In this document: positions 1,311 through 63,508 of the stretch, one piece after another
How the letters are laid out: the number at the start of each line of letters is the position of its first letter
How positions within the stretch are numbered: position 1 is the stretch's first letter
Program-made: the position numbers and the translations under genes
The notes under the pieces: model-generated
Told to the model about the DNA's origin: nothing
Seen by the model: only the letters and a program-made list of their open reading frames with translations
The model's database searches: none
From: a virus
Lineage: Duplodnaviria; Caudoviricetes
Virus record (IMG/VR): IMGVR_UViG_3300023119_000004
Reading direction: 5' to 3' (one strand)
DNA length: 64,000 bases

Positions 1311-2074
1311 TACTGCCTTTCGATATCATCTTCTTCGCAGTAATCACCTATCTGTACTTCTAGTATATGACAAGGCTCGTCTGTGTCATTAATGCCTTGA
1401 TGCCATTGCATTTCATGAATAATGGCTCTTTGATGTGGACCTAGTTCTGACATAATTTCAAAGTCTGTGCTACCGTTTATAGTTCCAATAGTACAGTTGC
1501 CTTTTAAAATATACCAAAACTCTGAACGACTTTTGTGTCGTTGCATACTTAATCTTGACTTAGGATTAATTACCAGTTCTTTAACTTTGTAACCTTTTGC
1601 TTGATCAAGCACACGCCAGTATCCCCAATCACGCTCGGTCTTTTGTGTTTTCCAGTTGTCTAATATCCAACTTGAACTATTCTTTTTATTATCGCCACCA
1701 ACACCATATGCAAATGTTAGTTCGCCTGTGTTGTCGTCAAATAGTTCTGGAATGTTATCGGCTTGTCTATCTCCGCCGTTGGCAAAAATAATTTCTATGT
1801 TTGGATAAAGACTACGTGTTTTTCGAATTGCATCAGTAGCACTATCGTCGTCATCGTTAAAATTAATTACACGATCAACACACGCTAGTTCACCGATAAC
1901 AGAAGCACGTTCTTCCCAAGTTAAGAATGGCCTACCTTTTTTACGGGTAAGCCATTCGTCACTGTTTAGTCCGACAATTAACTTGTCGCCAAGTTCTTTT
2001 GCGGCCTTAAAATAATCAATATGTCCTGAATGTAATGGATCAAATCCACCAGTTACTAATACTACGCTCTTCAT
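1310..2074 (-). CDS. Cytidylyltransferase-like domain fused to cupin (mannose-6-phosphate isomerase type II-like) domain
   Basis: N-terminal GGFDPLHSGH (HxGH) motif; C-terminal ERDWGYW...LSMQRHKSRSEFW cupin motif. Confidence 0.8.
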   Translation of the reverse strand: MKSVVLVTGGFDPLHSGHIDYFKAAKELGDKLIVGLNSDEWLTRKKGRPFLTWEERASVIGELACVDRVINFNDDDDSATDAIRKTRSLYPNIEIIFANGGDRQADNIPELFDDNTGELTFAYGVGGDNKKNSSSWILDNWKTQKTERDWGYWRVLDQAKGYKVKELVINPKSRLSMQRHKSRSEFWYILKGNCTIGTINGSTDFEIMSELGPHQRAIIHEMQWHQGINDTDEPCHILEVQIGDYCEEDDIERQ

Positions 2075-2079
2075 AGTAT

Positions 2080-2085
2080 TATTTA
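2080..2085 (-). promoter_or_regulatory. T4-late-like promoter TAAATA, 5 nt before ATG 2074, no SD
   Basis: TAAATA-ATACT-ATG. Confidence 0.65.
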
Positions 2086-2089
2086 ACAG

Positions 2090-2668
2090 TTATCGATTTT
2101 CAGCCTCAATATATTGGAGCATTGTTTCAGGGTCTGAAACTTCGTAAGGATCCATGTCAGTTCCTTCGTTGTTAAAGCCTGGTTCTACAAATGCTTCTTG
2201 GACAATGCCATTGTCAACAAATAAAGAATAACGCCAACTTCTATTAGCAAATCCTAAATGTCTTTTGTTAACAAGCATACCAATACCGTGTGTAAAGTCT
2301 GCATTACCGTCTGATAGTAATTTAACTTTCTCTACACCAAGTTGTTTGGCCCAAGCATTCATTACGAATCCGTCGTTAACGGATACACAATAAATCTCAT
2401 CTACACCTGCATCTTTAAACTTTTCGTACATTTCTTCGTACTTAGGAAGTTGTTCACTTGAACACGTTGGAGTAAATGCTCCTGGTAATCCAAAGATAAC
2501 AACTTTTTTGTTTGCAAAAAGATCTTTTGAATCTACTTGTACAAACTCACCGCCGATGGCACATCCTCCGTCATCTGCAACTTCGTCACCGATTCTATTA
2601 ATAAAAGTGACATGGGGTAGTGAATCCCATTTTTGAATCGCTTGTCTAGCGCCTGGATGTTGATACAT
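2090..2668 (-). CDS. Peroxiredoxin (Prx5/redoxin family)
   Basis: PGAFTPTCS peroxidatic motif, CVSVNDGFVMNAW, RSWRY. Confidence 0.9.
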   Translation of the reverse strand: MYQHPGARQAIQKWDSLPHVTFINRIGDEVADDGGCAIGGEFVQVDSKDLFANKKVVIFGLPGAFTPTCSSEQLPKYEEMYEKFKDAGVDEIYCVSVNDGFVMNAWAKQLGVEKVKLLSDGNADFTHGIGMLVNKRHLGFANRSWRYSLFVDNGIVQEAFVEPGFNNEGTDMDPYEVSDPETMLQYIEAENR

Positions 2669-2689
2669 AATATTTCCTGTAGTTAAAAA

Positions 2690-3145
2690 TTAAAGACTTG
2701 CGTCTTCCATACCTGCTACACGCAGTTTAACAATGTTAGTAATCTGCCATTGTTTTTGGTCGAGTCCTTTTGTTATACCCAACCATTTGTTTCGCATTAA
2801 TGCGAATTCGTTGATGATTTTTTCCATGTCTACTACGTCTGCTTCGCCGTCAACATACTTTTCTACATCTCTGCTACTCAAAGCACGTTGATAATTCTCT
2901 AAATATTTTTTAAAGAAACTGCTACGCAGACGTCTCAACTCAATGTTCAGGTATTCTAAAATTGCCTCTAATTCCTGTAATTGATTAAAACGCTGTTCAA
3001 CTAACCCTGGCATTTCTGCAGAAGCCTTTTCGATATTCCCGTATACACGGCACTCTTTTTTGGCTTCGAGTAGTTCGGTTTCGTAATAATCAATAGCATT
3101 AGGAATTTGTGAAATATCCTTAGCAATTTTTGAATACCATCCCAT
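2690..3145 (-). CDS. uvsY: UvsY-like recombination mediator
   Basis: About 150-aa helical protein with ALSSRDVEKYVDGE motif, located just downstream of uvsX. Confidence 0.7.
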   Translation of the reverse strand: MGWYSKIAKDISQIPNAIDYYETELLEAKKECRVYGNIEKASAEMPGLVEQRFNQLQELEAILEYLNIELRRLRSSFFKKYLENYQRALSSRDVEKYVDGEADVVDMEKIINEFALMRNKWLGITKGLDQKQWQITNIVKLRVAGMEDASL

Positions 3146-3378
3146 TAATCGTAATCCTCATCATCGTAGACATCTTCGTCAATGTCCTCTTCTAGGTAAT
3201 ACCCAATAGCCTTGTCTAAATGATTACAAGTGCCTAAAGCATCTCTAAAAGATTCGTCTGACGTACCATAATCGGCACAGACGTCTACGTATTTTTCAGC
3301 AATAGTTTCAATATGCTTCTTGTCTACATATTCTTTAAACGTTTGCCAAATGTCTACTACTTGTGAACCTGATTCCAT
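3145..3378 (-). CDS. Small acidic hypothetical protein
   Basis: 77-aa ORF with GGAG SD and upstream TAAATA (3408-3413), abutting uvsY. Confidence 0.6.
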   Translation of the reverse strand: MESGSQVVDIWQTFKEYVDKKHIETIAEKYVDVCADYGTSDESFRDALGTCNHLDKAIGYYLEEDIDEDVYDDEDYD

Positions 3379-3429
3379 AGAATTTGTCTCCTATAAATTA
3401 TCTACGGTATTTATAATCGTCATACTATT

Positions 3430-4503
3430 TTATTCAGTTACAGTTTCTTCGGTTTCAGTTTCGACTGTAGTGTCTACAGGTGCGTCTTCATCTGAAAACT
3501 CGTTCATTATTTGATCTAATAATGGACCACCTGCTTCCCATGCCTTACGATACTCTTTGATTTCTTCACCGCTCTTAGTTACATACTTCAAACGATTTCC
3601 GTCTTTCGATAGCATACCTTTTTTCTCAAAAAGATCAACAAGACCGCTGTATGGATTCATACCAGTTTCATAAGGAATCTTAACTTGCACACCTTCAAAC
3701 GGTTTTGCATATCTTGTTTTCATTACCTTACAACCTGCACGAATACCACGTACATCAGTTACTTTGTTACCATCTTCATCTTCTTTTAGTTTTAGTTTTT
3801 TCATTGCTACAACAATTGAAGATGCATAGATAAATCCTTGACCACCTGAAATCTTATCATCTGGATCAAACATATCTTGAGATGCGTAAGTATGATTAGT
3901 TGCTACTAGGCCCACGTTGTGTGAACCAAACATATTAACACAGTTACGTACAAGTGCTGTAAGTGCCTTAGGTTTTCTACCCATGTCACCTTTCATATCA
4001 CCCTTACTAAACTGATCAACGTCTGTGGGTGTTAATAACATACCCAATGAGTCAATAACAAATAATACTTTAGGACGTTCTTCTTCGTCCATTGCTTTGT
4101 AATCTGCCATAAATGTTGATACTGTTTTTGCAACATCATCAATCATTGACATATTAAGTTTTAGTAGTTTATCTTCTGAAGTGTCTACATCAAGTGCGTG
4201 TAACCATGCTTCATCAAGTGCGTTCTCTGAGTCAATTAGAACTACAAAGATGCCTTGTTCTTGTGCGGCTTTAACAATGTTACCTGCACAAATATATGAT
4301 TTACCTGCTCCTGACTCGCCTGCAAATACAGTTACCTTACCAAGTGGAACACCTTTATGGAAGTCACCACTTACAAGATAATTGAGTGCATAATTACCTG
4401 TACTAATCCAATCAGTTGGATCGTTGAATCCCGCACTCATGCCTGTAATAGACTTAGTCAAGTTTTTACGAAACTTGGAAACGTCAAATGCTTTGTTAGC
4501 CAT
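3430..4503 (-). CDS. uvsX: UvsX RecA-like recombinase
   Basis: Walker A GESGAGKS, Walker B FVIDSLG, ISGGQGFIYASS; AAGGAG SD. Confidence 0.92.
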   Translation of the reverse strand: MANKAFDVSKFRKNLTKSITGMSAGFNDPTDWISTGNYALNYLVSGDFHKGVPLGKVTVFAGESGAGKSYICAGNIVKAAQEQGIFVVLIDSENALDEAWLHALDVDTSEDKLLKLNMSMIDDVAKTVSTFMADYKAMDEEERPKVLFVIDSLGMLLTPTDVDQFSKGDMKGDMGRKPKALTALVRNCVNMFGSHNVGLVATNHTYASQDMFDPDDKISGGQGFIYASSIVVAMKKLKLKEDEDGNKVTDVRGIRAGCKVMKTRYAKPFEGVQVKIPYETGMNPYSGLVDLFEKKGMLSKDGNRLKYVTKSGEEIKEYRKAWEAGGPLLDQIMNEFSDEDAPVDTTVETETEETVTE

Positions 4504-4557
4504 TACTTCTCCTTAATCTTTTATAATGGGGTTGCCCTTAGACAACCCCTATATAAA

Positions 4558-5523
4558 TTACTGTTGTCTAGAACGGATCATTGCTAGAATGTCTTCCGCC
4601 TTGTTATCACCTGCTGGTGCCGCCGCAGTTTCTGCTACTGGTTCTGCCGCTGGTGCAGTTTCAGTTACAGTTTCTGTGACTGGTGTTGCTGGTGCTGGTG
4701 TAGTTGCTTTTACAGGATCACCTGTACGTGCCGCTACGCCTGCTGGACGGAAATACTGTCCAAACGCATCCATGTCGTATGCTTCGCCATCAACAGATGC
4801 TTCAAACATCTTCTTGATAACTTCGACTTCAACTTCTGAAGGTTTCTTAGGTAAGTAATCTGAAAGATTAAATAACCCATGATCTTCAATAGCCTTGTAC
4901 TCATCTTCAGACAATGGACGCTCTCTACGAGCCCAAGTTGATGTTGAGTAGTCTGCATAACCGCCTTTAGAAGTTTTTGTAATTCTAAAGTCAACACCCG
5001 CAGTATAATCTGTAGGCAACTCGTTCATATCTGGATCCATCAATGCACCCTTAATGATTTGGAAAATCTGTGGGCCAATGATAAATCTACGAATTGGATT
5101 ATCCGGAGTAGTATCTTCGGTAAGTGGGTTGTCAGTTACAAAACCTTGGAATACGTATGAACGCTTCTTCCAATACTTACGACCTAAGTCTTCAAGTTTT
5201 GGATCTTTAAACCAAGGACGTACTTCTGAAAGTACTGGACAAGTTTCGCCATACATTTCCATACATGGTACTTGTACTTGAACTGGACGAGAGTCTGTCT
5301 CGCCTTTAATTCCAGCAAATGGAAGTTTGATCATCAAACGTTCTTGCCAGAAGAAAGTGTTATTTTCGTCACCGTCAGGTAAGAAACGTAACGTTGCCGT
5401 TTCGCCTTCCTTCAAGTTCCAAAATGGGTAAATTGCGTTGTCGCCACCGCCTGACGAACGATTGCCGCCAGTATTTGCTTCTTGCTCTTTTAGTTTTGCA
5501 CGAATTTCTGCTAATGTTGCCAT
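4558..5523 (-). CDS. gp32: Single-stranded DNA-binding protein, T4 gp32 family
   Basis: LRFLPDG, CPVL, YWKKRSY, DYTAGVDFRITKT, GYADYSTSTW motifs; Ala/Thr/Pro-rich linker before C-terminal DILAMIRSR. Confidence 0.85.
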   Translation of the reverse strand: MATLAEIRAKLKEQEANTGGNRSSGGGDNAIYPFWNLKEGETATLRFLPDGDENNTFFWQERLMIKLPFAGIKGETDSRPVQVQVPCMEMYGETCPVLSEVRPWFKDPKLEDLGRKYWKKRSYVFQGFVTDNPLTEDTTPDNPIRRFIIGPQIFQIIKGALMDPDMNELPTDYTAGVDFRITKTSKGGYADYSTSTWARRERPLSEDEYKAIEDHGLFNLSDYLPKKPSEVEVEVIKKMFEASVDGEAYDMDAFGQYFRPAGVAARTGDPVKATTPAPATPVTETVTETAPAAEPVAETAAAPAGDNKAEDILAMIRSRQQ

Positions 5524-5590
5524 AATAAGCCTCCTATAAATTTAAGCCTTCGCTGTTAAGTGCCTTCGTATCTAGTAGCACATATTATAT

Positions 5591-5619
5591 ATACTACTAG
5601 AAATATTTAGTAAAGTCAA
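5591..5619 (-). promoter_or_regulatory. Sigma70-type promoter for gp32 with nested TAAATA late element (5604-5609)
   Basis: TTGACT (5619-5614) -17 nt- TAGTAT (5596-5591). Confidence 0.65.
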
Positions 5620-5641
5620 GTGGTTTTTTATCGAAAAGTGA

Positions 5642-7573
5642 TTACAGGCCTGCCAATTTCTTGACACGCTCCATTTCGTTATCCTTGCCAGCAAGTAAAC
5701 GACCTATCATCTTTTCTGCAAATGGTACACTCTTATCACCAAATTCTTTTTCACACGCAACTAATACTGCTGTTTCACCTTTTGGAAAAGCGTTAGTTGT
5801 GTAGTCGTAATATGATTTTACTAATTCTTCTAGTTTTTCGCCTTTGGAAGATAATGACTTATCTTCTTTTGTCTTTTCTAATTCTGCCTTTCTACGCATC
5901 AATTCTTTTTTAAGTTCTGGATCCTTGTTTGTATTAGGATCAGATTGAATGTCTTGTAATGCCTTCTTTTTAGCATCGTAGTCACTCATTTTATTATTTT
6001 TTTCTTGTGGTGTTTCGCTTTCTGCTGGAACCGCTTCTGGTTCTGCTGTTGGCGCTTCTGGTTCTGCTGTTGGCTCAGCAGGTACTTCACCTTGCTCAAT
6101 TTTTTCTGCTACTTGTGGATCTTTACCTTTTACATACTTAATAACTAAAGGACGAACGTCTGAATCTGCATCTTTTTGTCCTACCTTTTTAAACATATCT
6201 AAAAGCATTGGATCATCAATTACACCTTTTAAACTTTGGATAGCGTTTGCACCATTAATGCCTGCTGGGAAATGCTCAGCCATTAAGTTATTAAGTTTGC
6301 CAAGTGCTTCTTCTTGTTTATCGCCACCCGCAAATAATTGATCTTCTTCTTCGCTTACAATTGAATTCATTGCTTTTTCAAAATCTGCTTCTGGGGTTTC
6401 GTTTGTTCTTTGTAGTGCTTTCTTAACACCTGGATGGTCTGAAAGTCCTTTTGCAATCTTTTCAATTGTATCAACAGCACCTGAATAGTTGCCGCCTTTG
6501 TATCTTGGATCATTTAGTACGCCATAAGCCATTTTAATTTCTTTATCTGAGAAACCCATATTGTCTTGTGCTTCTTTTTCGCCAAGTAAATCTTCTGGAC
6601 CCATTTCTTGAACTTGATTTCTTTCTTGTACTAAACCATAAATGTATGGGAATACAGATTTAAGTTCTTCGTTAAATGTTCTAATAGTTAATTCATCAAC
6701 CCAAGCATTTTGTAAATCTTCTGGAACTTCTTCTTTTACTACTGGTTTGAAATCTTTTGTTGCTTCTGTATAATAATTTTGTCTTTGTAATTTTTGAACT
6801 TCGTTTTTGATAGTTTCAACTCTTTCACTAACAATATCTAAATAGCCTTTCAGTCCTTCTGCCATTACTGCTGATCTATTCATGTAAGTTCTAAATTGAC
6901 GTAGTTTGTTTAATTCTTCAGACATATTAACAATGTGCTGACCAAAGTCATCATAAAGGTTACCACCGTTGGAGACGTGACGTGCTAACGCTCTTGCACC
7001 ATTTAAATGTCTAAATGGATATTTGTATCTTTCGCCATCAGCACTTTCAATATAAATGCTGTGTACGTGTTGTGTTCTACCTGCTGGTAGTTCTTGATTA
7101 ATTGGTTGCGTATGTTTAAGAACAAGACGTGCATTATCTACATCTTCGTAACTTGTTCTAGCAGTACCATACAATTTACTTTCACTCATTTGTTTGTCTC
7201 CGGCAGTTCTAGTTAGGTGTGCATAGTCCCTTTTATCTAAGTTGCTTTTTGTTATATCTCTTGTATCAAAATTTAGCATATTCTTTTTAGCAAAGAATCT
7301 AAGTTCTTTTAAAAACTCGTACCAGTTGTTCTTTTCTGATTCATCTGCTTCAGCCATGATGTCTGTATTAAACAAAACAACAACACCATTTTCATCTAAT
7401 GATACACTTACTTTTCCTAATACTTTAGCCCCTTCCTTGTAATCAAAATCAAAATATCTTGCTTGACTTGGTTGGTCAGTTACTGTACCACTGGCATCAC
7501 CAATAGTCACAGATGGGAATCTGCCTCTAATTTTGGCAAATAAACGTTCTGAAATAGGCTCCATATTACTCAT
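5642..7573 (-). CDS. Large hypothetical protein downstream of terminase; possible internal head/core protein
   Basis: 643-aa ORF with own TAAATA promoter; acidic linkers; no catalytic motif recognised. Confidence 0.6.
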   Translation of the reverse strand: MSNMEPISERLFAKIRGRFPSVTIGDASGTVTDQPSQARYFDFDYKEGAKVLGKVSVSLDENGVVVLFNTDIMAEADESEKNNWYEFLKELRFFAKKNMLNFDTRDITKSNLDKRDYAHLTRTAGDKQMSESKLYGTARTSYEDVDNARLVLKHTQPINQELPAGRTQHVHSIYIESADGERYKYPFRHLNGARALARHVSNGGNLYDDFGQHIVNMSEELNKLRQFRTYMNRSAVMAEGLKGYLDIVSERVETIKNEVQKLQRQNYYTEATKDFKPVVKEEVPEDLQNAWVDELTIRTFNEELKSVFPYIYGLVQERNQVQEMGPEDLLGEKEAQDNMGFSDKEIKMAYGVLNDPRYKGGNYSGAVDTIEKIAKGLSDHPGVKKALQRTNETPEADFEKAMNSIVSEEEDQLFAGGDKQEEALGKLNNLMAEHFPAGINGANAIQSLKGVIDDPMLLDMFKKVGQKDADSDVRPLVIKYVKGKDPQVAEKIEQGEVPAEPTAEPEAPTAEPEAVPAESETPQEKNNKMSDYDAKKKALQDIQSDPNTNKDPELKKELMRRKAELEKTKEDKSLSSKGEKLEELVKSYYDYTTNAFPKGETAVLVACEKEFGDKSVPFAEKMIGRLLAGKDNEMERVKKLAGL

Positions 7574-7578
7574 ATTAG

Positions 7579-7584
7579 TATTTA
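7579..7584 (-). promoter_or_regulatory. Late promoter TAAATA, 5 nt before ATG 7573, no SD
   Basis: GATAAATA-CTAAT-ATG. Confidence 0.65.
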
Positions 7585-9168
7585 TCTTATGTTAGTCGAA
7601 ACGAATATAGGCATTGGCGGTACATGATCTTCATCTGTTTCAGCATGATTAAAGGTTTCATATACCCTAGGATCCCAATCCTTTAGCACAGCAATAATAC
7701 GCATAGTTAGTAATGTTGCTGAAACTAAGTCATCTGTTTCACCTGGTTTTGCTTTGTAACTGCTACCGCTGGCTACAAATGCTTTTAATTCACTTAGCAA
7801 TACTTTACTATGTACTACTAGTTTATCTGATTCTATCATGGCTTTTAATCTTGAACAAGCACTTATTTTGGTTGCGTGTGTAGTATTAAATCCTTTGCGG
7901 AATTTTCTTACGTGACCTTTACGCATAGGCTCACTTACTAACATTCCTGGTATATTCTCTTCCCCAAGGTCTCTAATAACAATTAATGCTCCTTCACCGA
8001 TAGTGTTATTTTCAACACTCCAATAAATGTTTTGTCCATCGTTGTGACATTGGTCTTTAATATAGTTACAAATATCTGTTAGAATTCTAATTTGTCCTGG
8101 TATTGCTGTTTGATTATGACGCCATTCACCTACTTGTTTGTAGGTTGGTAATTCAAATATTTGTATGGCCGCATAATCGCCGCCTGTGCCCATTGCCGGA
8201 TCTAATGCAACTACATAAGTCTTATCACCGCTTGGTTTACTGTACCAACGTGTTTGTCCCATATTGAGTATAGGATCAATACCTTCCATACTTGCAAGTT
8301 TGATTGAGTTAATTAGTGTCTCGTCATAGACTAAGAATTCACAACCATACTCACGACGGAATCGTTCTTCACCAATACGTCCTATCTCTGCCTTTTTCCA
8401 TTCTTCGTCTCTGTCAGGATGCTCGTCCCAACTACAAGTAAACCCATGAAATCCGTTTACACCTACTTCTTGTTCGTTGCCATTATCGTCAAACTTGTTT
8501 TGGCTTTCTTTCCAAATAATAGCAAATGTATCTTCGTCTGAGTTAGGTGTGCTTGTAATAATAGCACGACCACCTGTTGCTAGTGTAGGTGAAATTGAAG
8601 TCCAAAACTCATCAGCAATACTAGGATTCACAAATGCAAACTCGTCACAGTATAGTAATGATATGGACATACCTCTACCAGTGTTACCTGTTGTGGTAGC
8701 ACTTACAATACGTGAACCATTTTCAAATTCAATACTACCTTTGTTGTAGTTAACAACTCCTGCTCTAATATGATCAGGACAACATTCATAAACGTAACGA
8801 ATACGTTGCATAATTTCTTGTGCGCCTGAATATTTGTGTGCGGCAATTAGTACAGTTTGATCTGGATGAAACATCGCATACCAAGTTAAGTAAACAGCGG
8901 CACAAGTAGTTTTACCTGTCTGTCTGGGTAACATATTAATATTAAAACGATGATCGTGATAACTTTTTAAAAGTCTTTCTTGATATGTAAAAGGATCAAA
9001 TAAAAGTTTACCTTTTACGGGGTGTTGAATGTAAGCAAACTTTTCAGAAAAATATAGGTAGCCGGTATCAGGATCCATGCACTTCTTGAGATCCTCGATA
9101 TTCTCGTTAGTAAATGTTTCTCTTTGGTTGGCTTTCTTAGTAAGAACGCCGTCTAAACTCTTTGCCAT
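7582..9168 (-). CDS. gp17: Terminase large subunit (T4 gp17-like); start revised to ATG 9168
   Basis: Walker A PRQTGKT, Walker B LYCDEFAF, ITSTPN, RNase H-like ALDPAMG, DDLV; the track start at 9186 is a TTG lying upstream of the promoter. Confidence 0.93.
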   Translation of the reverse strand: MAKSLDGVLTKKANQRETFTNENIEDLKKCMDPDTGYLYFSEKFAYIQHPVKGKLLFDPFTYQERLLKSYHDHRFNINMLPRQTGKTTCAAVYLTWYAMFHPDQTVLIAAHKYSGAQEIMQRIRYVYECCPDHIRAGVVNYNKGSIEFENGSRIVSATTTGNTGRGMSISLLYCDEFAFVNPSIADEFWTSISPTLATGGRAIITSTPNSDEDTFAIIWKESQNKFDDNGNEQEVGVNGFHGFTCSWDEHPDRDEEWKKAEIGRIGEERFRREYGCEFLVYDETLINSIKLASMEGIDPILNMGQTRWYSKPSGDKTYVVALDPAMGTGGDYAAIQIFELPTYKQVGEWRHNQTAIPGQIRILTDICNYIKDQCHNDGQNIYWSVENNTIGEGALIVIRDLGEENIPGMLVSEPMRKGHVRKFRKGFNTTHATKISACSRLKAMIESDKLVVHSKVLLSELKAFVASGSSYKAKPGETDDLVSATLLTMRIIAVLKDWDPRVYETFNHAETDEDHVPPMPIFVSTNIR

Positions 9169-9175
9169 AGTATAG

Positions 9176-9181
9176 TATTTA
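9176..9181 (-). promoter_or_regulatory. Late promoter TAAATA, 7 nt before terminase ATG, no SD
   Basis: TAAATA-CTATACT-ATG. Confidence 0.6.
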
Positions 9182-9184
9182 CTC

Positions 9185-9212
9185 AAAAAAATAGGGCCCG
9201 TAGGCCCTATTT
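9185..9212 (-). terminator. Intrinsic terminator
   Basis: AAAUAGGGCC-UACG-GGCCCUAUUU followed by further U residues. Confidence 0.85.
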
Positions 9213-9238
9213 GGTTTGCTAACTTAATACTTAATTAA

Positions 9239-9826
9239 TTACTTGCAATCGCAGTCTGGACAATCTGGTCCACAGTTGCATTCGCCGCCATCGCAACATT
9301 CACATCCGCCTTCTTCTTCTGCCATGTATTCTGCTAACTTTGCCGCTAATTCTTGTTTAATTTGATCTTCTAGTGCCATTGGGTTATCACCGCCTGCAAC
9401 TTTTGGATAAGATTTTTTAGATCTGTTTAATCCGCCTGATAAATCTTTTGTCATATACTTTGTATCTTGATAAGTTTCATCTGGTTCGTTGTCCCACTCT
9501 TCAACTGGTACTTCTTCGTCTTCTACAGAGTCATTACAACTACTTGCGCCTAAATGATTCTTGCCGCAAATTGGACAAGGTGCGCCTTGCTTTCCTGGTT
9601 TAAGATCATCCATGTCTTTGCCTGGTCTGTCAATAATTGATAAACTTTTTTCAATATCATCTCTTGGGGGTAAAGGTGGAAGCATCTTTGGTTCTGCTGG
9701 TTTTTCACCACGCATCATATTAAAAAGATCACCAACGTCTTGAGCGTTATCACCGGACATTGAAATGTTCATTGATACTGCTTCGTTTAACGCATCAATC
9801 TTTTTGTAGATATCATTTAATTTCAT
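9239..9826 (-). CDS. Acidic hypothetical protein with CPICxxxH motif and Cys-rich C-terminal tail
   Basis: 195-aa ORF ending GGCECCDGGECNCGPDCPDCDCK. Confidence 0.65.
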   Translation of the reverse strand: MKLNDIYKKIDALNEAVSMNISMSGDNAQDVGDLFNMMRGEKPAEPKMLPPLPPRDDIEKSLSIIDRPGKDMDDLKPGKQGAPCPICGKNHLGASSCNDSVEDEEVPVEEWDNEPDETYQDTKYMTKDLSGGLNRSKKSYPKVAGGDNPMALEDQIKQELAAKLAEYMAEEEGGCECCDGGECNCGPDCPDCDCK

Positions 9827-10395: not shown

Positions 10396-10416
10396 TGTCA
10401 TATATCCTATTATATA

Positions 10417-10917: not shown

Positions 10918-10951
10918 TTCTTTATACCATTAAATGCTACTATTATTTATC

Positions 10952-11389: not shown

Positions 11390-11393
11390 TGGA

Positions 11394-11810: not shown

Positions 11811-11820
11811 GATTAAATCC

Positions 11821-13185: not shown

Positions 13186-13190
13186 ACTAA

Positions 13191-13196
13191 TATTTA
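13191..13196 (-). promoter_or_regulatory. Late promoter TAAATA, 5 nt before ATG 13185, no SD
   Basis: GATAAATA-TTAGT-ATG. Confidence 0.65.
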
Positions 13197-54400: not shown

Positions 54401-56784
54401 GCGTGTGTATAACCAATTGCAAAAATTTTATTTGCGTTACTGTATACTGTTGGTGCTTCGGCATCATAGTATCTGTTGTTTACTGTAGCAGTAATAGGAC
54501 TTTCACTTGCTAGTTCACCTTCAGCAAAAGAACCAAACTTACCATAAGAGTTATTACCAACTGTAGCACGAATTTTACCACCTGCTGTACAATAGTAACC
54601 AATATGGCAGTAATAAGTGAACACGGAAACAAGTTCCATTCTGCCGTCTTTGTTTGCCCAGGCTCCAATGCCTTCTGAAATTACTTGTGTAAAGTCGTTT
54701 GCAACAATAGATTTATTACCACCGTCATGTAATTCTCCATCAACTTTAAGACCTACACATCCATGACCGATTGTTGTTACGTTTTGTACGTATGTTGATT
54801 TATTTGTAACCCAAACACTTGTATCGTCTGGGCCTGTTCCCGGATCAAGTGCTACGAATGCACCTGCTGTTGGAACTTGAGCACCATACACATTAGGCTC
54901 ACCTAATGATCCACGTAATCCTTGTAGGGTCATATTTCTAATACCACAACCGTTACGCACTTGAAACATATCTCTTTCTTCGTTGTTTAATGCTGGTTTA
55001 ATTGTAGTACTTCTTAGTTCATCGCCAACAATAGCAACATTTGCCGGAACTTTAATTGGAAGAATTTCTTCATAAATTCCTGTTGCAACAAAAATTGTTG
55101 CTGGCGCTCTTGCGGCTTCGTCTGCTAAGATATATTGTGTTGCATACTTAACTGATCTAAATGGTGATGTTGAACTTAATCCAAATCCACTAGCATCTCT
55201 ACCTGATGTAGCAACATAATAAACCTTTGGTGTTTGTCCAAATGGTTCCCAAGTTGCTTGATCGTTAACTTGTTTTAATGCATCTCCTGGATCACCAATA
55301 GTAATTCTAGCATGGTCGGTTCCATCGTGACCTCTTAGGTCACCTCTGTGTTGCATTACGTTACCAGGCGAACCTTGAAGCATTTTCTCCCAATAACTTC
55401 CGTTATCTAATGCTGGTTCAACTAGTGTTGAATCGTCACCTTCGTGTGCTTGTACACATTTCCAAGTTGTTCCCGCTTGAACAACAATGTCACCTAATAC
55501 ATAATCTTGATCTGAATACCATTCGCCTCTGTAGTAAGGACCAGTTAATACTAACTGCCAGTACATTGAAACAGACCCTTCTGCAGATCTTGTTGAACCC
55601 GGATCGTAATATCCTCTCCATTCAGGATCTAGTGCATCTGGTTGAACACCTTGGCTATCTTGTACAGCAATATAAACAAAACCTTTATTTCTTACAACAC
55701 TACCAGTTTTATATTCAATGCCGGCTTCCCATTCGCCTGTCATTTTATAACCGGTAATTAATAATTCCCAATCGTATTGACCTTGTAAACTTTCGCCTTC
55801 GTAGAATACACCTGTTACACTTGGCGCACTACCAACGTTATTAGTCATTGATGTATATGTATATCCACCGTAGTTAACTACGTCACCTGGTTGATAATAT
55901 GTTGTAGCCGACCATTCGTTTTCAAAACCCATGCCAGGCATCCAAATATCAAAGAAATCTTCTTGGAAGTTACCTGTTGATGTATGATGTTCTGTACAAC
56001 GCCAAATAGTAGGACCCCACTTGACAAGGTCGCCTACTCTGTAATGTACACCTACTGAGTCGCCAGCATCTTGCCAACCGCCTAAATAACGTACACCAGA
56101 AATTACAATTTCCCAATGTGCTAAGTCTTGTTCAAGCCCGTTTAGTGGGTTTGAATCTGAAGTGTGTCCTGCGATACATCTGTAAATGATAGCACCATAA
56201 CGTACTACATCATTATATCTGTATCTAGTTGAAGGGCGCCATTCAATTCTAAAATTGTCGCCTCTGAAAATAATTTGCCATTTATCTGCGTCTACTTCAA
56301 GACCAGAAACTACTGATGATGATGTGTGTTCCTGAATACAGTTGTAAGCATAACCACCATATAAGATAACATCATTTTTTCTATATCTTGTTAACGGAGT
56401 CCAGTCTCTTCTCCAATTAGTAGTAGCGGCGAATCCAATAAGTTTATCTTCATCTTCGGTAATACCAATTGCGGCGTCTTCGTTTGATCTATGTTCTTGT
56501 GTTACTCTATATACAATACCATCATATTTAAATAGATCGTTTTCTTTATAAAGTGTGTCAACAACCCAGTTACCTTTCCATTGGTAACCATCTGCCATTT
56601 TTAACCATTTAGGTGGATCAGCACTTAGATCAAGATCAAAACTTGTTTGACTTGATGTGTGACCAACCATACAAACATAAGTGTTACCACCATGTCTAAT
56701 AATATCATCTTTAATATATGTCGCACCTTGCAACCATATATTTTTCCATGTATATCTAATTCTTGCTAGGTTAAATTCAGCCAT
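51463..56784 (-). CDS. Giant tail fibre paralog (1773 aa) with CBM5/12-like repeats, pectin-lyase-like region and BNR/Asp-box propeller
   Basis: Same architecture as 45322-51426 plus S.D.G.SW repeats (STDDGQSW, SNTNGTTW, SDGGDVW). Confidence 0.75.
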   Translation of the reverse strand: MAEFNLARIRYTWKNIWLQGATYIKDDIIRHGGNTYVCMVGHTSSQTSFDLDLSADPPKWLKMADGYQWKGNWVVDTLYKENDLFKYDGIVYRVTQEHRSNEDAAIGITEDEDKLIGFAATTNWRRDWTPLTRYRKNDVILYGGYAYNCIQEHTSSSVVSGLEVDADKWQIIFRGDNFRIEWRPSTRYRYNDVVRYGAIIYRCIAGHTSDSNPLNGLEQDLAHWEIVISGVRYLGGWQDAGDSVGVHYRVGDLVKWGPTIWRCTEHHTSTGNFQEDFFDIWMPGMGFENEWSATTYYQPGDVVNYGGYTYTSMTNNVGSAPSVTGVFYEGESLQGQYDWELLITGYKMTGEWEAGIEYKTGSVVRNKGFVYIAVQDSQGVQPDALDPEWRGYYDPGSTRSAEGSVSMYWQLVLTGPYYRGEWYSDQDYVLGDIVVQAGTTWKCVQAHEGDDSTLVEPALDNGSYWEKMLQGSPGNVMQHRGDLRGHDGTDHARITIGDPGDALKQVNDQATWEPFGQTPKVYYVATSGRDASGFGLSSTSPFRSVKYATQYILADEAARAPATIFVATGIYEEILPIKVPANVAIVGDELRSTTIKPALNNEERDMFQVRNGCGIRNMTLQGLRGSLGEPNVYGAQVPTAGAFVALDPGTGPDDTSVWVTNKSTYVQNVTTIGHGCVGLKVDGELHDGGNKSIVANDFTQVISEGIGAWANKDGRMELVSVFTYYCHIGYYCTAGGKIRATVGNNSYGKFGSFAEGELASESPITATVNNRYYDAEAPTVYSNANKIFAIGYTHAGGHYTDVTFNITGSGSGVSVDNNFAELRNGSISEIRLLDPGDSSPTGGRGHITGIRNSAQGGDNISITIAQSDNNGPDYYVGRAVLAVSNISGADPNRVDDPELFPQTYTNVSGTSNNIFASVGTFNITVDETGNITAIVPINGGHSHRVGDQITISDADLGDHGGADVSFTVSEISPGMRIIIEEGEGVGQYGIIDEYFVTTKKINVLRESDGKRGWDHIVPGWDISTQLDGSTTYRIESRIELDEPYYEEYSYNTGNSQSYQTLGLTSGETNAIFPSAGTDVALYSNAAGDQWTPATVDSGFVRPNCGVQCKGFLKYFITVGNGNRANLSTALTAWGSDPYPINQHNYVDIKEGPFGAASHTVIAIADDSDEIAISNTNGTTWSYVNVGGPGSGFKHIAYGNGKWIIVSGSGAAWESTDDGQSWTGTTAVCPNTYNVTGFRFGNGRFVAACQPNGTATFPFDPSTTMLSDNSSSTTAVFGLSSTYFISFTDFAEGPGNATWREVDGSANINTNEWGLDYSDGLFMSIDTAGNLLYSDGGDVWKSKGPLTIPSGGTAYVPKVCGTTTTFGPRFFMFNTTSQQNVTAIDYGAKALMRAYPVNTGRIESFTITEPGSGYRTQTPPSVHIHDTQKTQDVTYQVRLNNRVLGQPTFKNRGSLYTKFNAVTITGDGYADKFQLGGDIVVSDLTLVPSPGDNLRFSSITDVIYKVGTATVLEGSVPNATVKISLAPNMGVQESPQHGEAVTIRQNYSQVRLTFHDFLDIGTGGFDDTNYPLLYTDGYSSINPPEQMWETQEYNGGRVFYSSTDQDGNFRVGELFKVEQSTGIVTINASQFDLQGLDELRLGAFILGGTNAVIREFSKDGTFTANSNAIVPTQKAIATYIQSRISGGGANVAANAVTAGTVKLSNLNQISNTGDLAINIPVPMHMTKIPSGMMMAMSYFNVNASTMGLMETDAIEGDGSYYDVGENGWDPGTGV

Positions 56785-57182
56785 TATCCACTATATCCTG
56801 TTGCATTTGAACCAAATGGTAAGTGATCTGCTGAAATTGTATCATCATAATCATATTTAGTGTTAATACGTAACACCAATTCTCCAGAATCATTTACATA
56901 ATAATAAATGTTCTTTTCATCCCAACGCATTTGTTCATAGTTTAAGTTATCAAAAACTAGTTCGTGATTAGGGTTTCTTCCCTCAAAGAAGTCTTCACCA
57001 GTTTGCCATTCTGCAAAGTTACCATCTGGACCACCTGGTCTATTAACTTGCAACTCGTCTGTAGGAGAAGCAATATCAACCTTTGCAATAAAAAGTTGTC
57101 CGTCATCGTCCCTACGCAATGCATAAAAATATCTATCGCTAGTTTGTCCTTCTAACGGTGCTGATCCTACATATTGTACCAT
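56784..57182 (-). CDS. Hypothetical virion-associated protein
   Basis: 132-aa ORF with 1-nt overlaps on both sides. Confidence 0.6.
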   Translation of the reverse strand: MVQYVGSAPLEGQTSDRYFYALRRDDDGQLFIAKVDIASPTDELQVNRPGGPDGNFAEWQTGEDFFEGRNPNHELVFDNLNYEQMRWDEKNIYYYVNDSGELVLRINTKYDYDDTISADHLPFGSNATGYSG

Positions 57183-57511
57183 TATACAATCTCCACGTAA
57201 CTAAGAATTACGTCAACAGCATCATCTTGATCTGCTGTAACTACTACTTCATTATTTCCTGGTAAGACTAATTTCTCACCACCATTAATTGCCCTTAAGG
57301 CCGCATTAGGTGCAATCATAACATCTTTGATATAATATCCTAATACACTTGTATCGTCTTTAATTTGAATACTAACTCTAGTATTACCGTCTAGTAGATT
57401 AGCAACTGACATACCAATTGCTGTAACTTTCGATGCCGGTGGCACAGTTAGTATTGAAATTGGTTGTGTTCCTACGCTTTTTTCTACTTTGTTTCTAAAA
57501 AATGTTGCCAT
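57182..57511 (-). CDS. Small beta-rich virion protein (paralog family)
   Basis: ILTVPP...SVAN...GEKLVL pattern. Confidence 0.6.
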   Translation of the reverse strand: MATFFRNKVEKSVGTQPISILTVPPASKVTAIGMSVANLLDGNTRVSIQIKDDTSVLGYYIKDVMIAPNAALRAINGGEKLVLPGNNEVVVTADQDDAVDVILSYVEIV

Positions 57512-57514
57512 ATC

Positions 57515-58990
57515 TTATCCTAAACTTAGTACTAACTCCAATGCAATGTTCTGTGCATCTGTTTGTGAAACAGCACCTGAACTACCTGCAACTGAATCCC
57601 ATTGTGTACCATCATAAATTTCTAATCTTCCGTCTGTTGTATTCCAACGCATCATACCAATAACTGGTGAAGGGTGTCTTTGAGCACCAGTACCTACCGG
57701 AACAACAAACCCTTCAGTACCGTCAAACTTAAAATAGCCTCCATTTGGGCTAGAAAACGTTAAAGCACCGCCGGCTACAGTATTATTTATAGTACTTCCA
57801 CTAATATTAACATCACCAATTTGTACACCGCCTGTACCGTTTGGTGATAAAATTAAGTCTGTATTAGCAGTTGTTGTACTGATAGTGTTACCGTCAAGTC
57901 TTATACTGTCAACTTGTAATCTAGCAACATTAAATTCTTGTTGTGTAACTGTAGCAATTAGTGAACCACCTGCATAAAATCTAATAGTATCATCATTTGC
58001 ACCTGGTGTTAATTCTGCTGTAATATATGTGTCAGCATCTAGGTCATATACTCCTGTTAGTACAATCCAGTTACCGTCATAACCTTCAAACTTATTTGTA
58101 TCTGTGTTATAACGAATCATACCAACTGCTGGAATTGCTGGTCTTTGTGCTGTTGTGCCTGACGGAATTCTAATAGATCCAGTAGCGTCAATATCCATTA
58201 CACCACTTGCAGGTGCAATAGTAATATCATTAGCAGAACTAATTCTGCTACCTTTAAAAATAAAATCGTCAATAATAACAGATCCATTACCTGCGTAACG
58301 TAATTCTAAATCTGCATTTGAAACTGTGTTTTGAATTACACCAGTATCGATTTGAATGTCATCAATGTAAGCACTTCCAGCATGAATACTATTCCATGTT
58401 TTTGCTGGTGTACCTAAGTTGTATGTTGCAGTTTGATCTGGTAATAAATCTGAAGTAATACCTGCATTAATGCTAATAGTATCTGTTGCTTCATCGCCTA
58501 TTACAACGTTACCTGCAACTGTTACATCACCACTAGCATTAATATTTCCTGTAACATCTAAATTACCTGTAATATTAGTATGACCTGTAATGTTAACTTC
58601 TCCAGTTCCGTCTGGAAAAATATCAATATCAGCATTTGATACTGTTGTAGAAATTACGTTTGTTTGAAATCTTAAATCGTCTACTTCAAAAGTTTTTAAT
58701 GAAGTAACTTTGTCTGATCCTACTGTTTGTAGTTGTAATGTGTTTCCAGTTGTTTCAACAGTATTACCACTTATACGTACATCGCCGACATAAGCAGTAC
58801 CTGAAGTTACTGAATCAATTGATCTTAGTGTTCCGTTAATATCTAAATCGTATTGTGGACTAGCGGTATTGACGCCGATCTTGCGGTTATTAACATCTAA
58901 GTAAAGTAAATCCGTTTCAAATGCTAAATCAACTCCATTACGAAGAAGATTTTGCTTTAAAAGCGGACCCGAAATACGACCTACAGCCAC
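57515..58990 (-). CDS. Virion structural/fibre protein; start revised to GTG 58990
   Basis: GAGGAG SD 7 nt before GTG; repeated IPSGTTAQRP...GMIRYNT modules; C-terminal LVLSLG. Confidence 0.7.
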   Translation of the reverse strand: MAVGRISGPLLKQNLLRNGVDLAFETDLLYLDVNNRKIGVNTASPQYDLDINGTLRSIDSVTSGTAYVGDVRISGNTVETTGNTLQLQTVGSDKVTSLKTFEVDDLRFQTNVISTTVSNADIDIFPDGTGEVNITGHTNITGNLDVTGNINASGDVTVAGNVVIGDEATDTISINAGITSDLLPDQTATYNLGTPAKTWNSIHAGSAYIDDIQIDTGVIQNTVSNADLELRYAGNGSVIIDDFIFKGSRISSANDITIAPASGVMDIDATGSIRIPSGTTAQRPAIPAVGMIRYNTDTNKFEGYDGNWIVLTGVYDLDADTYITAELTPGANDDTIRFYAGGSLIATVTQQEFNVARLQVDSIRLDGNTISTTTANTDLILSPNGTGGVQIGDVNISGSTINNTVAGGALTFSSPNGGYFKFDGTEGFVVPVGTGAQRHPSPVIGMMRWNTTDGRLEIYDGTQWDSVAGSSGAVSQTDAQNIALELVLSLG

Positions 58991-59134
58991 TTTATTGCTC
59001 CTCAATACGGGGATCCTGTCCCTCTAGCCTAATTTTCATCCTTACATTATTGCTCGGCTCTTTGCTGGCTAACCACAGTATGTCCCATACTACAACTAAG
59101 GGTCTCTCTCCCTTAATCGGTCTTGTAGTATGTT
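58991..59134 (-). ncRNA. Candidate structured 5' leader RNA (144 nt)
   Basis: TAAATA at 59140-59145; 10-bp stem 59132-59123/59095-59086 with inner UAAGGG/CCCUUA stem; further UAGCC/GGCUA and GGGA/UCCC pairings. Confidence 0.55.
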
Positions 59135-59158
59135 AATAGTATTTATCGAAAATGGATA

Positions 59159-60631
59159 TTAACCTAGTGCTAAGGTATAGATAAAGCCTAATTCTTCCAT
59201 GTAGTCTTCATTAACTGTATCACCTGCACCCGAAACGTTATTCCAATTACCATCAGCATAAGTTTCAAGATATCCTAGGGTAACGTTAAAACGTGTAGTA
59301 CCTTCTTGTAGTGTTGCACCACCCGGTCTTGCCGCTAATGACCCCGAAGGAATTACAAATCCGCCAGTATCTGCAAATTCAACACGACCGTATTGCGTAG
59401 GTACATTATTTGTTCTAGTAAACACAAAATCATTCGTTAGACTTGTGTTAGTAATAGTAGCACCATTAAAATCTAAATCATACATTCTAACTGTACCTGA
59501 ACTTGGTACTAGATTAATATCTGAATTAGTTACTTGGCTACTAATAGTTCCGTTATCAAATGTTAGATTATCCTGAGAAACTAATCTAGTTGACACAATT
59601 CCTAAATCTGTCAATGTATGATTTGTAACACCATTTGTTGTAAAATCGAAATAGTTTCCAGCATTTGCTAGTACATAAGTCTGTCTATCTTCACTCCAAA
59701 TACCCCTTAACGGAGTATATGCACTTGAAAATAATTCAAAGAAATTTGTAGTTGTATTATAACGAACATCTCTAAACAAGTTAGGACGTTCTGCTTCAGT
59801 ACCGTGCGGAACATTTAGTGCTCCAACTCCGCTAATCCCGATGTTAGCACCCGGATCTAAATTAAATGTTGTTGAGTTTGTTGTAGTTAATGTACTACCG
59901 CTAATTCTCATATCATCAATGACAATAGCACCCGTACCACTTGCTCTTAAAATTAAGTTATTACCCGAACTTGTTGTAGTTATGTAATCATTATCAATTT
60001 CAATGTCGCCAAATTTTGCTTTTGCGGCTGTAACGTTATTCCAAACTTTTGTAGGGCTACCTAAATTAAGATTATCCTCAGTTCTATTAGGAACTATGTC
60101 TTGTGAAAAATCTACTAAACTAAAATTAATTGTATCTGTTTCTTCATCACCAAATACAAAGTTACCGCCAACAGATAAGTTACCTGGAATAGTAACATTA
60201 CCAGTAACATCAATATCTCCAATATGGTTTACATTTTTTCTAAAGTGTGTAATACCTGTTCCATGAGGTTGAAAGTTTATGTCACTGTTTGATAAACTTG
60301 TAATATCGTTATTATTAAAAACTAAATTGTCAGTATGTAACTGTTCTGCTCTAACTAAATTAGCAGAATTTAAATTAATATCTCCAACTGTTGCTCTTAC
60401 GCCAGTTGTACTAACTTCAATATTTCCCGAAGTCTTTCTAGTAAAATAACCATCGCCGTACCAAGACTGTCCTAGTACTTGTACAAGGTCTGTTGGAGAA
60501 TTTGTAAGGACACCTATTCGTGTATTACTCGATCCAATATGAAGTAGATCAGTTTCAAACGCTAGGTCAGACTGTGTTCGAACTAAGTTCGATGCTAATA
60601 ATGGACCTGATATTCTTGCTATTTGTGACAT
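59159..60631 (-). CDS. Virion structural/fibre protein, paralog of 57515-58990
   Basis: N-terminal RISGPLL.SNL.R...DLAFETDLL shared with its neighbour; C-terminal YTLALG. Confidence 0.7.
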   Translation of the reverse strand: MSQIARISGPLLASNLVRTQSDLAFETDLLHIGSSNTRIGVLTNSPTDLVQVLGQSWYGDGYFTRKTSGNIEVSTTGVRATVGDINLNSANLVRAEQLHTDNLVFNNNDITSLSNSDINFQPHGTGITHFRKNVNHIGDIDVTGNVTIPGNLSVGGNFVFGDEETDTINFSLVDFSQDIVPNRTEDNLNLGSPTKVWNNVTAAKAKFGDIEIDNDYITTTSSGNNLILRASGTGAIVIDDMRISGSTLTTTNSTTFNLDPGANIGISGVGALNVPHGTEAERPNLFRDVRYNTTTNFFELFSSAYTPLRGIWSEDRQTYVLANAGNYFDFTTNGVTNHTLTDLGIVSTRLVSQDNLTFDNGTISSQVTNSDINLVPSSGTVRMYDLDFNGATITNTSLTNDFVFTRTNNVPTQYGRVEFADTGGFVIPSGSLAARPGGATLQEGTTRFNVTLGYLETYADGNWNNVSGAGDTVNEDYMEELGFIYTLALG

Positions 60632-60659
60632 ACTGTTATGTTCCCTCTAACAGTATTTA
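60630..60659 (-). promoter_or_regulatory. Late promoter (60654-60659) overlapping a 9-bp hairpin that encloses the SD and pairs the AU of the start codon
   Basis: AUACUGUUA-GAGGGAACA-UAACAGUAU(G). Confidence 0.6.
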
Positions 60660-62501: not shown

Positions 62502-62521
62502 GTGGGGGATTTCTCCCCCAC
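62502..62521 (-). other. GC-rich GAAA-tetraloop hairpin between genes (no U-tract)
   Basis: GUGGGGGA-GAAA-UCCCCCAC. Confidence 0.6.
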
Positions 62522-62535
62522 CATAGTACTATCTA

Positions 62536-62976
62536 TTAGCCATCACCTTCAGTATCGTCAGCACCTGTTAGTACGTCATCTGATGTACCAAGAGTTGCGT
62601 CAACACCTGCGCCAATGCCTGTACCTGCTTCTTCAACTGCTACTGTATCACCAGTACCTGTGAAGTCCCAGTTAATTCTTGAACCGTTGTCCATAGTAAG
62701 AACACGACCAGAAATTTTAGTTACTTGACGAGCAGTACCACCGTCATCAACTGTAATAGTCATTTCACCTGCCGCGATAGCCGCTGATGCTTTGTCTACT
62801 AGGTAGCAAGTACCAGTGTCTGTTCCGCCTGCATTTGAAACTTTAAAACGCTTTGAACCAGTTTGTTTTACAATGTAACCCGGTGTTGAACCGTTACCTG
62901 TGTTAAACTGGACCTTAATTTCTGAACCACCTGCTGTAGGTGCTCCGAAATATCTTTTATTAATAGGTCTTCCCAT
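62536..62976 (-). CDS. Conserved-looking virion protein; start revised to ATG 62976 (MGRPINKRY)
   Basis: AAGGAG SD before 62976; GYIVKQTGSKRFKV motif. Confidence 0.65.
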   Translation of the reverse strand: MGRPINKRYFGAPTAGGSEIKVQFNTGNGSTPGYIVKQTGSKRFKVSNAGGTDTGTCYLVDKASAAIAAGEMTITVDDGGTARQVTKISGRVLTMDNGSRINWDFTGTGDTVAVEEAGTGIGAGVDATLGTSDDVLTGADDTEGDG

Positions 62977-62996
62977 TTGTTTTCTCCTTATTAGAA

Positions 62997-63069
62997 GTCC
63001 GATGCACGTTCTAGGTGCTACGGGGTTGGATCCCCATAAGTCCGCCACTCTTGCGGCACACTATCTGAC
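62997..63069 (-). ncRNA. Candidate 73-nt four-way-junction (tRNA-like) 5' leader RNA
   Basis: Closing stem plus three hairpins; first G lies 6 nt after TAAATA (63075-63080). Confidence 0.6.
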
Positions 63070-63077
63070 ACAAGTAT

Positions 63078-63497
63078 TTATCTAATTGCTGTGATTGGTG
63101 AATTATTATTACGAACTGCAAGATTTATAAAGGATCTTATAAAGTCAAAGCGTGTTGCAAGTATTTCAAATAAATCTGTATTAAAGCCTTCTTGCACAAG
63201 CGTATATGAACTTTTTCCTATATCTGAATAGTACCGCACACTTATTCCATACTCAGGAAAAACGCCTGTAACAAACAAACAACTATCTCCTAATTCTTTT
63301 GCTGTGTAGTTGTATGGACGTTTGAGTTTTAAAAACTCTTGTGCAAAGGTTTGTTTTGGAAGAAAATTTGGTTTGTCTATTTTGTCTGCAAGAAGCATTA
63401 CTACATAGGCTTCAATTTCGGTCGGAAGATCAAACCCAGTAGTTGACTGTGCCTCGCGGACAATGTCGTAAAAGGCCGATGTGTATTCGTCCCTCAT
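63078..63497 (-). CDS. Hypothetical protein
   Basis: 139-aa ORF with TAAATA-TTAGT-ATG start. Confidence 0.65.
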   Translation of the reverse strand: MRDEYTSAFYDIVREAQSTTGFDLPTEIEAYVVMLLADKIDKPNFLPKQTFAQEFLKLKRPYNYTAKELGDSCLFVTGVFPEYGISVRYYSDIGKSSYTLVQEGFNTDLFEILATRFDFIRSFINLAVRNNNSPITAIR

Positions 63498-63502
63498 ACT
63501 AA

Positions 63503-63508
63503 TATTTA
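63503..63508 (-). promoter_or_regulatory. Late promoter TAAATA, 5 nt before ATG 63497, no SD
   Basis: TAAATA-TTAGT-ATG. Confidence 0.65.

Follow-up and report, generated by a model that had tools for sequence, protein, structure and literature searches.

The window analysed here is a stretch of 64,000 nucleotides (nt) from an uncultured giant marine phage of the Caudoviricetes that is related to T4 (IMG/VR record IMGVR_UViG_3300023119_000004), and it carries TAAATA boxes in front of its genes in two arrangements. At short-spacer sites, the box stands 4–8 nt before an ATG; at long-leader sites, it lies further upstream and the intervening stretch holds a Shine–Dalgarno (SD) sequence. The short-spacer sites are probably late promoters of the type read by gp55, the late sigma factor of phage T4, with the transcription start (+1) on or near the A of the AUG, so that leaderless late mRNAs would be made. 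Both arrangements had been noticed in an original prediction made from the sequence of the window, and every short-spacer site that it listed was found with the spacing given there (Table 1). The long-leader sites on its list all had SDs of the AGGA/GGAG type. Its figure of about 25 boxes was fair, with roughly 20 within 60 nt of starts and a few further upstream.

Distribution of the box and its distance to the start codon

TAAATA is depleted overall, with 57 occurrences in the window against 98 ± 9 expected. Among the 15 permutations of four A and two T, none is rarer in the 185-kb parent contig (168 sites). Although rarest, it is the permutation found most often just upstream of starts: 52 of the 168 sites lie 0–60 nt before a candidate start in gene orientation, compared with 13–43 for the other permutations. 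Gene starts were taken from a home-made gene model, by which the open reading frame (ORF) at 17323 was missed.

The spacing between box and ATG (d, in nt) is bimodal in the contig. Seven sites have d = 5, none has d = 0–4 or d = 6, two have d = 7, and there is one site at each spacing from 8 to 11. For the spike at d = 5, a binomial test gave P = 3e-4 (0.01 when corrected for 31 positions). The second mode is broad, at 14–27 nt, and the leaders found there carry SDs of the AGGAG type. Spacings of 9–13 nt are nearly empty, as would be expected if such a leader were too long for a leaderless start and too short for an SD and its spacer. The arrangement TAAATA-N5-ATG occurs 12 times, and in 9 of these cases the ATG starts an ORF of 60 codons or more. 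When GTG, TTG, CTG, ATT, ATA or ATC takes the place of ATG, no occurrence in the contig opens an ORF of that length. The short-spacer layout makes up about a fifth to a quarter of the late promoters in the contig.

The box was also considered as a mere TAA stop codon followed by ATA, and this was rejected because it holds at 7573 only. At that junction the stop codon of the terminase gene doubles as the TAA that begins the box of the following gene (7579-7584), an overlap that is kept in relatives.

Start codons of the short-spacer genes

Spacers of 4–8 nt are too short to accommodate an SD. A purine-rich triplet (AGG or GGA) is present just 5' of the box, 11–14 nt from the ATG, at 4 of the 11 short-spacer sites of the contig. 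It is the GA of the promoter consensus shared by both kinds of site, not a positioned SD, and it would not be transcribed. Pairing energies with the anti-SD were weaker for short-spacer genes than for other genes (Mann–Whitney P = 0.008). All 11 genes start with ATG, which is weak evidence since GTG and TTG are used by only 10 of 178 genes. A search for SD-led starts further downstream gave no credible candidate in these genes, and terminase protein alignments extend to residue 1–3 in 80 of 80 related loci. The products comprise the terminase, a gp25-like baseplate wedge, minor virion proteins, an enzyme and small proteins without assigned function.

Conservation of the short spacer in related phages

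The terminase is 77–86% identical in hundreds of marine IMG/VR contigs, among them a complete genome of 357,559 bp (G001). Among cultured phages, the nearest relatives are PA5oct (terminase 53% identical) and then Phosso and the Rak2/GAP32/CBB group, the terminase identities ranging from 44 to 53%. Conservation was followed in 80 related marine loci or contigs, plus G001. In the five gene families counted in the last column of Table 1, spacer and flanking sequences vary while the distance of 4–8 nt stays.

Of the unique start contexts pooled from the relatives, 135 have d = 5 and 33 have d = 4, compared with 0–4 for the neighbouring spacings. The spacing is also bimodal in G001, which has 25 short-spacer genes (14 at d = 5, 9 at d = 4 and none at d = 6), and 10 of the 11 short-spacer genes of the contig belong to this class there too. 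The 112-aa ORF at 17323 is 65% identical in G001, with d = 4, and the start of the G001 orthologue of the gene at 21850 reads TAATTA, 5 nt and ATG. As the original prediction had anticipated, the spacing histogram is not flat: it peaks at 5 in the contig, in the pooled relatives, in G001 and in the cultured phage HTVC008M.

Table 1. Late boxes in the window, with their start codons and products. Positions are those of the window; the last column gives the number of related loci with the box 4–8 nt from the ATG.
Class	Box	ATG	Strand	Box-to-ATG stretch	Product and remarks	Related loci
Short-spacer	2080-2085	2072-2074	-	5 nt	254-aa cytidylyltransferase/cupin protein (nucleotidyltransferase-like enzyme family); d = 5 in G001	20 (d = 5 in 16)
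Short-spacer	7579-7584	7571-7573	-	5 nt	643-aa virion structural protein, gene next to the terminase	70 (d = 5 in 53, d = 4 in 12)
Short-spacer	9176-9181	9166-9168	-	7 nt	Terminase large subunit; terminator hairpin 9189-9212 upstream	71 of 80 (d = 5 in 55)
Short-spacer	13191-13196	13183-13185	-	5 nt	454-aa tube-like protein	38 (d = 5 in 37)
Short-spacer	17312-17317	17323	+	5 nt	112-aa Cys-containing ORF	27 (d = 5 in 13, d = 4 in 14)
Short-spacer-like	19238-19243	19252	+	8 nt	387-aa virion structural protein; G001 orthologue d = 5	
TAACTA variant	21839..21852 (box to ATG)	21850	+	5 nt	NUDIX hydrolase; putative promoter	
Short-spacer	63503-63508	63495-63497	-	5 nt	139-aa protein without family; G001 orthologue d = 5	
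Long-leader	13938-13943	13915	-	22 nt with AGGAG	Tail tube protein	
Long-leader	17247-17252	17198	-	48 nt with AGGAG	Tail sheath protein (1082 aa)	
Long-leader	19223-19228	19202	-	GGAG at position 6 after box	Head-tail adaptor	
Long-leader	34063-34068	34046	-	SD GGAG starts exactly at position 6 after box		
Long-leader	First bases 3408, 10418, 10944, 35788, 40103, 43849, 44970, 51454, 60654		-	SD-bearing leaders	Further boxes, span 3379..60659	

The box as a probable late promoter and the predicted start position

A gp55-type sigma factor, which the original prediction had suggested looking for elsewhere in the genome, is encoded on the contig outside the window (G000:C1:78288-79139; 83301-82450 in the window frame). 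The protein of 283 aa matches T4 gp55 in phmmer (2.8e-9), phrog_12791 (6e-78) and T4's own family, phrog_234 (2.7e-22). A Pfam search of the protein gave no match, and the identification came from PHROGs. Its gene adjoins homologues of gp46 and gp47, as in T4. The T4 protein has 185 aa, and the one found here carries an N-terminal extension of roughly 130–160 aa.

In gene orientation, the box precedes the genes for sheath, tube, adaptor, terminase, baseplate wedge and virion structural proteins. One consensus for both classes, GA-TAAATA-nTAnT-A, emerged from sequence logos (130 unique sites with a short spacer and 159 with a long leader, 289 in total); its TAAATA core is invariant because the sites were selected on it. 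Apart from terminator T-runs, no conserved upstream block was found in the 289 sites, and there was no −35 element. Several independent lines, among them the sigma gene, the spacing and the consensus, support, indirectly, the assignment of TAAATA as a T4-type late promoter box read by the gp55-type sigma factor. This part of the original prediction stood, and the support for its further claims, that +1 falls on the AUG and that the messages are leaderless, is indirect.

The start position was approached from the long-leader sites. There, 81% of the sites have a purine (62% an A) at position 6 after the box, with a T in front of it; a pyrimidine at −1 followed by a purine at +1 is the usual start-site dinucleotide. 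At short-spacer sites, position 6 is the A of the ATG. In addition, the SD core of long leaders never starts before position 6 in the contig (22 of 22), with 40 of 42 in G001, and several of these leaders start with GGAG exactly at this position. In T4, where the gp55 sigma factor works with the co-activator gp33 and the sliding clamp gp45, the late box TATAAATA spans −13 to −6, its first T being −13 (PMC2988020). With this geometry, a 5-nt spacer would place +1 on the A of the ATG, and the purine at position 6 together with the lower bound on the SD supports the same geometry independently of T4. The data suggest a +1 at about position 6 after the box.

A single promoter type could then underlie both architectures. 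TAAATA would act as the −10-like box for the host RNA polymerase core carrying the phage gp55-type sigma factor, and transcription would start at the sixth base after it. At long-leader sites, the start would lie 9–22 nt or more before the ATG, giving a leader that holds an SD of the AGGAG type, in some cases right at the 5' terminus. At short-spacer sites, the ATG would occupy the start position (spacer of 5, less often 4) or lie 2–3 nt downstream of it (spacer of 7–8). Since the 5' end of the mRNA would be at the AUG or within 3 nt of it, a leaderless route of translation would be required, by which ribosomes recognise an AUG at the 5' terminus and need no SD. The polymerase holoenzyme, the exact +1, the leaderless translation and any consequence for dosage are what we infer from sequence.

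Terminators upstream of probable fused promoters

Three short-spacer genes have a terminator in front of the box. At the terminase gene, the hairpin and its T-run end 3 nt before the box, and the whole module from hairpin to ATG takes about 45 nt. The hairpin has a folding energy of −18.3 kcal/mol (z = −4.6). Its 8-bp stem was followed in 34 distinct relatives, where 98.2% of the cells are paired and 6 of the 8 pairs changed on both sides; none of 500 shuffles matched this, and slid controls were 18–51% paired. Judged by this covariation, the hairpin is an intrinsic terminator. The gene at 63497 has a similar unit (63495..63545, - strand), in which a hairpin and U7 terminator (−14.5 kcal/mol, z = −2.9) are followed by 3 nt and the box. 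Upstream of the box of the 13185 gene lies the terminator of the tube gene (13225-13255). Between positions 1 and 20000 of the window, the two best terminator-like sites each precede a short-spacer gene.

Since incoming transcripts would mostly be stopped at the terminase, 13185 and 63497 genes, the fused promoter is the obvious candidate for the main source of translatable message there. A promoter fused to the start codon behind a terminator would give a message with at most a few untranslated bases.

Evidence against leaderless messages and alternative explanations

Several observations weigh against leaderless late messages. The RNA data came from six salt-marsh metatranscriptome runs as assembled contigs only, whose depth cannot rank genes. 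Some of these contigs, which do not provide transcript 5' ends, cross short-spacer junctions (e.g., 6705-7841 and 11325-13351), so read-through RNA or contaminating DNA exists. The stop codon of the upstream gene lies 8 nt before the ATG at 7573 and 15 nt before that at 2074; termination–reinitiation coupling could therefore translate both genes without a promoter of their own. A comparison of the 5' ends of short-spacer genes with those of other genes detected no reduction in structure and was uninformative (minimum free energy of the first 45 nt, P = 0.70; unpaired probability of the AUG, P = 0.36). As regards the late transcription machinery, the C-terminus of the sigma factor is without the LDFL clamp-binding motif of T4, and no match to gp33 or gp45 (phrog_254, phrog_223 and the T4 proteins) was obtained in the contig, G001 or PA5oct; with the contig 51% complete and control genomes also unmatched, absence is not proven. 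Consequently, the box-to-start geometry of T4 would be borrowed from a partly different system, and the one described here would be related to that of T4 without fully belonging to it. The missing LDFL motif and the undetected gp33 and gp45 hint at clamp-independent late transcription in this clade.

Along the stretch, the ratio of RNA to DNA depth changes about 35-fold, and this points to real transcription more than to carried-over DNA. Two RNA contig ends, at 9186 inside the T-run of the terminase terminator and at 17227 in the sheath leader, were given no weight with regard to leaderless starts.

The boxes might be real late promoters while the short-spacer proteins are produced mainly from read-through transcripts, through reinitiation or SD-independent internal initiation, the spacing being a by-product of packing. 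This explanation draws on the upstream stops 8–15 nt from the ATG at 7573 and 2074, on the junctions bridged by RNA contigs and on G001, where a terminator lies directly upstream at only a minority of the short-spacer sites. We regard it as unlikely, since packing alone would not lead one to expect that the spike falls at exactly 5 while 6 is empty, or that it is kept in 70 diverged loci. Moreover, the terminase, 63497 and 13185 genes sit behind terminators with no nearby upstream gene end for coupling, and coupled junctions usually overlap (ATGA or TAATG) instead of containing an 11-nt promoter module.

It is still less probable that TAAATA at the short-spacer sites functions in the RNA, as an AU-rich unstructured landing site for the ribosome or its protein S1 that replaces the SD, and not as a promoter. 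The motif is AU-rich, it takes the place of an SD and it is followed by a conserved AU-rich spacer, all of which would suit such an element. The same extended consensus, with the upstream GA and the downstream TAnTA, is nevertheless found 15–50 nt from SD-led starts, where substitution for an SD is impossible. Where the box lies 3 nt past a terminator, little RNA would contain it, and TAAATA matches the box of the gp55-type sigma factor that the phage itself encodes. Chance or mis-assigned start codons, for which one could point to the home-made gene model and to a window of 63% A+T, are hardly credible given the permutation controls, the binomial test, the replicate genomes, the conservation among orthologues, the failure to find alternative SD-led starts and the lack of a short class in T4 when it was run through the same pipeline.

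Comparison with known systems

The system has much in common with late transcription in T4: an AT-rich 8-bp box of −10 type with a TAAATA core, no conserved −35 element, an AT-rich downstream stretch and association with virion and packaging genes. It differs at box positions −13/−12, which are TA in T4 and GA in this phage group, and in the short class: in T4, 27 of 32 perfect TATAAATA boxes lie 13–34 nt before starts, with a peak at 28, and none is closer.

Among the nearest cultured relatives, ATAAATA before structural genes and a gp55-like sigma factor have been described in CBB and GAP32, in which gp33 and gp45 were not found (PMC5259590). The Rak2/GAP32/CBB group and PA5oct share the box before structural genes and the gp55-like sigma factor, and the papers call the motif a putative late promoter only. 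For PA5oct, sigma70-type promoters alone were reported and leaderless mRNAs are not mentioned (PMC7318152). In its genome, 2–3 genes have the box at d = 5 (e.g., gp262, with its annotated ATG at 144985, and gp356, with its ATG at 49602) and otherwise there is nothing at 1–15 nt; its terminase is SD-led, unlike the short-spacer terminase of the contig. At NC_071039.1 180250-180267 (- strand), PQE65_gp213 is annotated to start at 180267, but 15 nt downstream of this position there is an ATG that stands 5 nt after GATAAATA. The annotated ATG overlaps the upstream GA of the box, and the shorter start may be the real one.

HTVC008M, a cultured myophage of Pelagibacter (SAR11), has 12 genes with TAAATA-N5-ATG. 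It belongs to another family (recorded under Kyanoviridae), and it has roughly equal numbers of short-spacer and long-leader genes. Late-promoter prediction is reported to have failed in the pelagimyophages (PMC7029224).

Leaderless genes with a −10 element adjoining the ORF are known from Deinococcus-Thermus (PMC12340547). As at the short-spacer sites, a −10-type element stands there at a fixed short distance from an AUG start with no SD. That layout uses the TANNNT box of the host sigma-A and is found genome-wide in the host, whereas here the element is a phage late box, presumably read by a phage sigma factor, in a phage that also uses strong SDs. A sharp peak in the distance from the −10 element to the start codon is the accepted genomic signature of leaderless genes. 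Precedents among phages are lambda cI transcribed from PRM and middle and late genes of the Thermus phage phiYS40. The present layout is a variation on two themes already known, late promoters of the T4 type and leaderless genes whose −10 element adjoins the ORF. In the literature, no paper was found that describes a fused late promoter and start codon or that pairs TATAAATA with 'leaderless', a word that the T4-like phage and cyanophage papers examined contain only where a gene finder is cited.

Two proposed modes of late translation and their implications

The original prediction had interpreted the two classes as a two-tier code, with leaderless translation for low-copy and SD-led translation for high-copy late proteins. 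This fits loosely. Terminase, wedge and minor virion proteins are short-spacer genes, and sheath, tube and adaptor are SD-led; copy numbers were assumed, and giant, presumably low-copy proteins such as that of 2034 aa at 51426 are SD-led as well. The further suggestion that the phage might evade inhibitors of canonical initiation found no support, since the most abundant late proteins keep strong SDs. That the anti-SD might be removed late, or canonical initiation shut off, was likewise considered and is contradicted by the strong SDs of sheath, tube and adaptor.

A broader proposal can be put forward only tentatively. The distance from box to AUG might be a conserved switch of translation mode, set gene by gene, in marine T4-superfamily phages, in which one sigma factor would serve both SD-led messages for the bulk virion proteins and leaderless messages for terminase, baseplate wedge, minor virion proteins and enzymes. 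The leaderless messages would be insulated by modules of terminator, promoter and AUG, and leaderless initiation alone would then set their yield. It would be an old trait, shared by PA5oct-like jumbo phages and pelagimyophages and lacking in T4-like coliphages. Confirmation of the 5' ends would add a layer of late-gene control that is absent from the T4 model, in a large and ecologically abundant set of T4-related marine phages. Whether a protein is made by the leaderless or the SD-led route would then be encoded in the distance between promoter and AUG, and each gene family would have kept its setting through long divergence. By implication, leaderless mRNAs are translated reasonably efficiently by the hosts at late times of infection. 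Two cultured phages with the design, PA5oct of Pseudomonas aeruginosa and HTVC008M of Pelagibacter, make a direct test possible.

Start codons and promoters in such genomes could also be annotated better. In addition, the 11-nt module of promoter plus start codon and the insulator made of terminator, promoter and AUG are candidate parts for phage engineering.

Genomic context and further observations

The window is the reverse complement of positions 97589-161588 in a single viral contig of 184,930 bp (36% G+C; completeness estimated at 51% by CheckV), and its DNA is present in salt-marsh metagenomes and metatranscriptomes. It holds a giant myovirus module for tail, packaging and baseplate, in which sheath (1082 aa), tube, terminase and head-tail adaptor genes were identified. 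The only megablast match of the window to cultured phages was 82 bp in the sheath gene, so there is no close cultured relative. Seven bases differ between window and contig (5924, 24720, 62545, 62583, 62594, 62595 and 62597); the C>T at 5924 is also seen in two RNA runs and is probably strain variation.

Two late boxes stand back to back on opposite strands at 19223-19243, 9 bp apart; the pair serves the SD-led adaptor (ATG 19202, - strand) and the short-spacer virion protein gene (ATG 19252, + strand). The 112-aa ORF (17323-17661, + strand) runs opposite to its neighbours and overlaps the 3' end of a convergent gene (17624-18217); it gave no family match in Pfam or PHROG. The start is ambiguous in one listed long-leader gene only (10395 or 10401).

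Genes for a UvsX-like recombinase and a gp32-like single-stranded DNA-binding protein (3430-5523, - strand) are embedded in the structural module. Both are preceded by strong SDs, neither has a late box within 75 nt, and their assignment as capsid genes was rejected in view of these products. Three giant ORFs lie on the - strand, at 25344-33008 (2554 aa), 45322-51426 (2034 aa) and 51463-56784 (1773 aa), and a late box with an SD-bearing leader precedes the one of 2034 aa.

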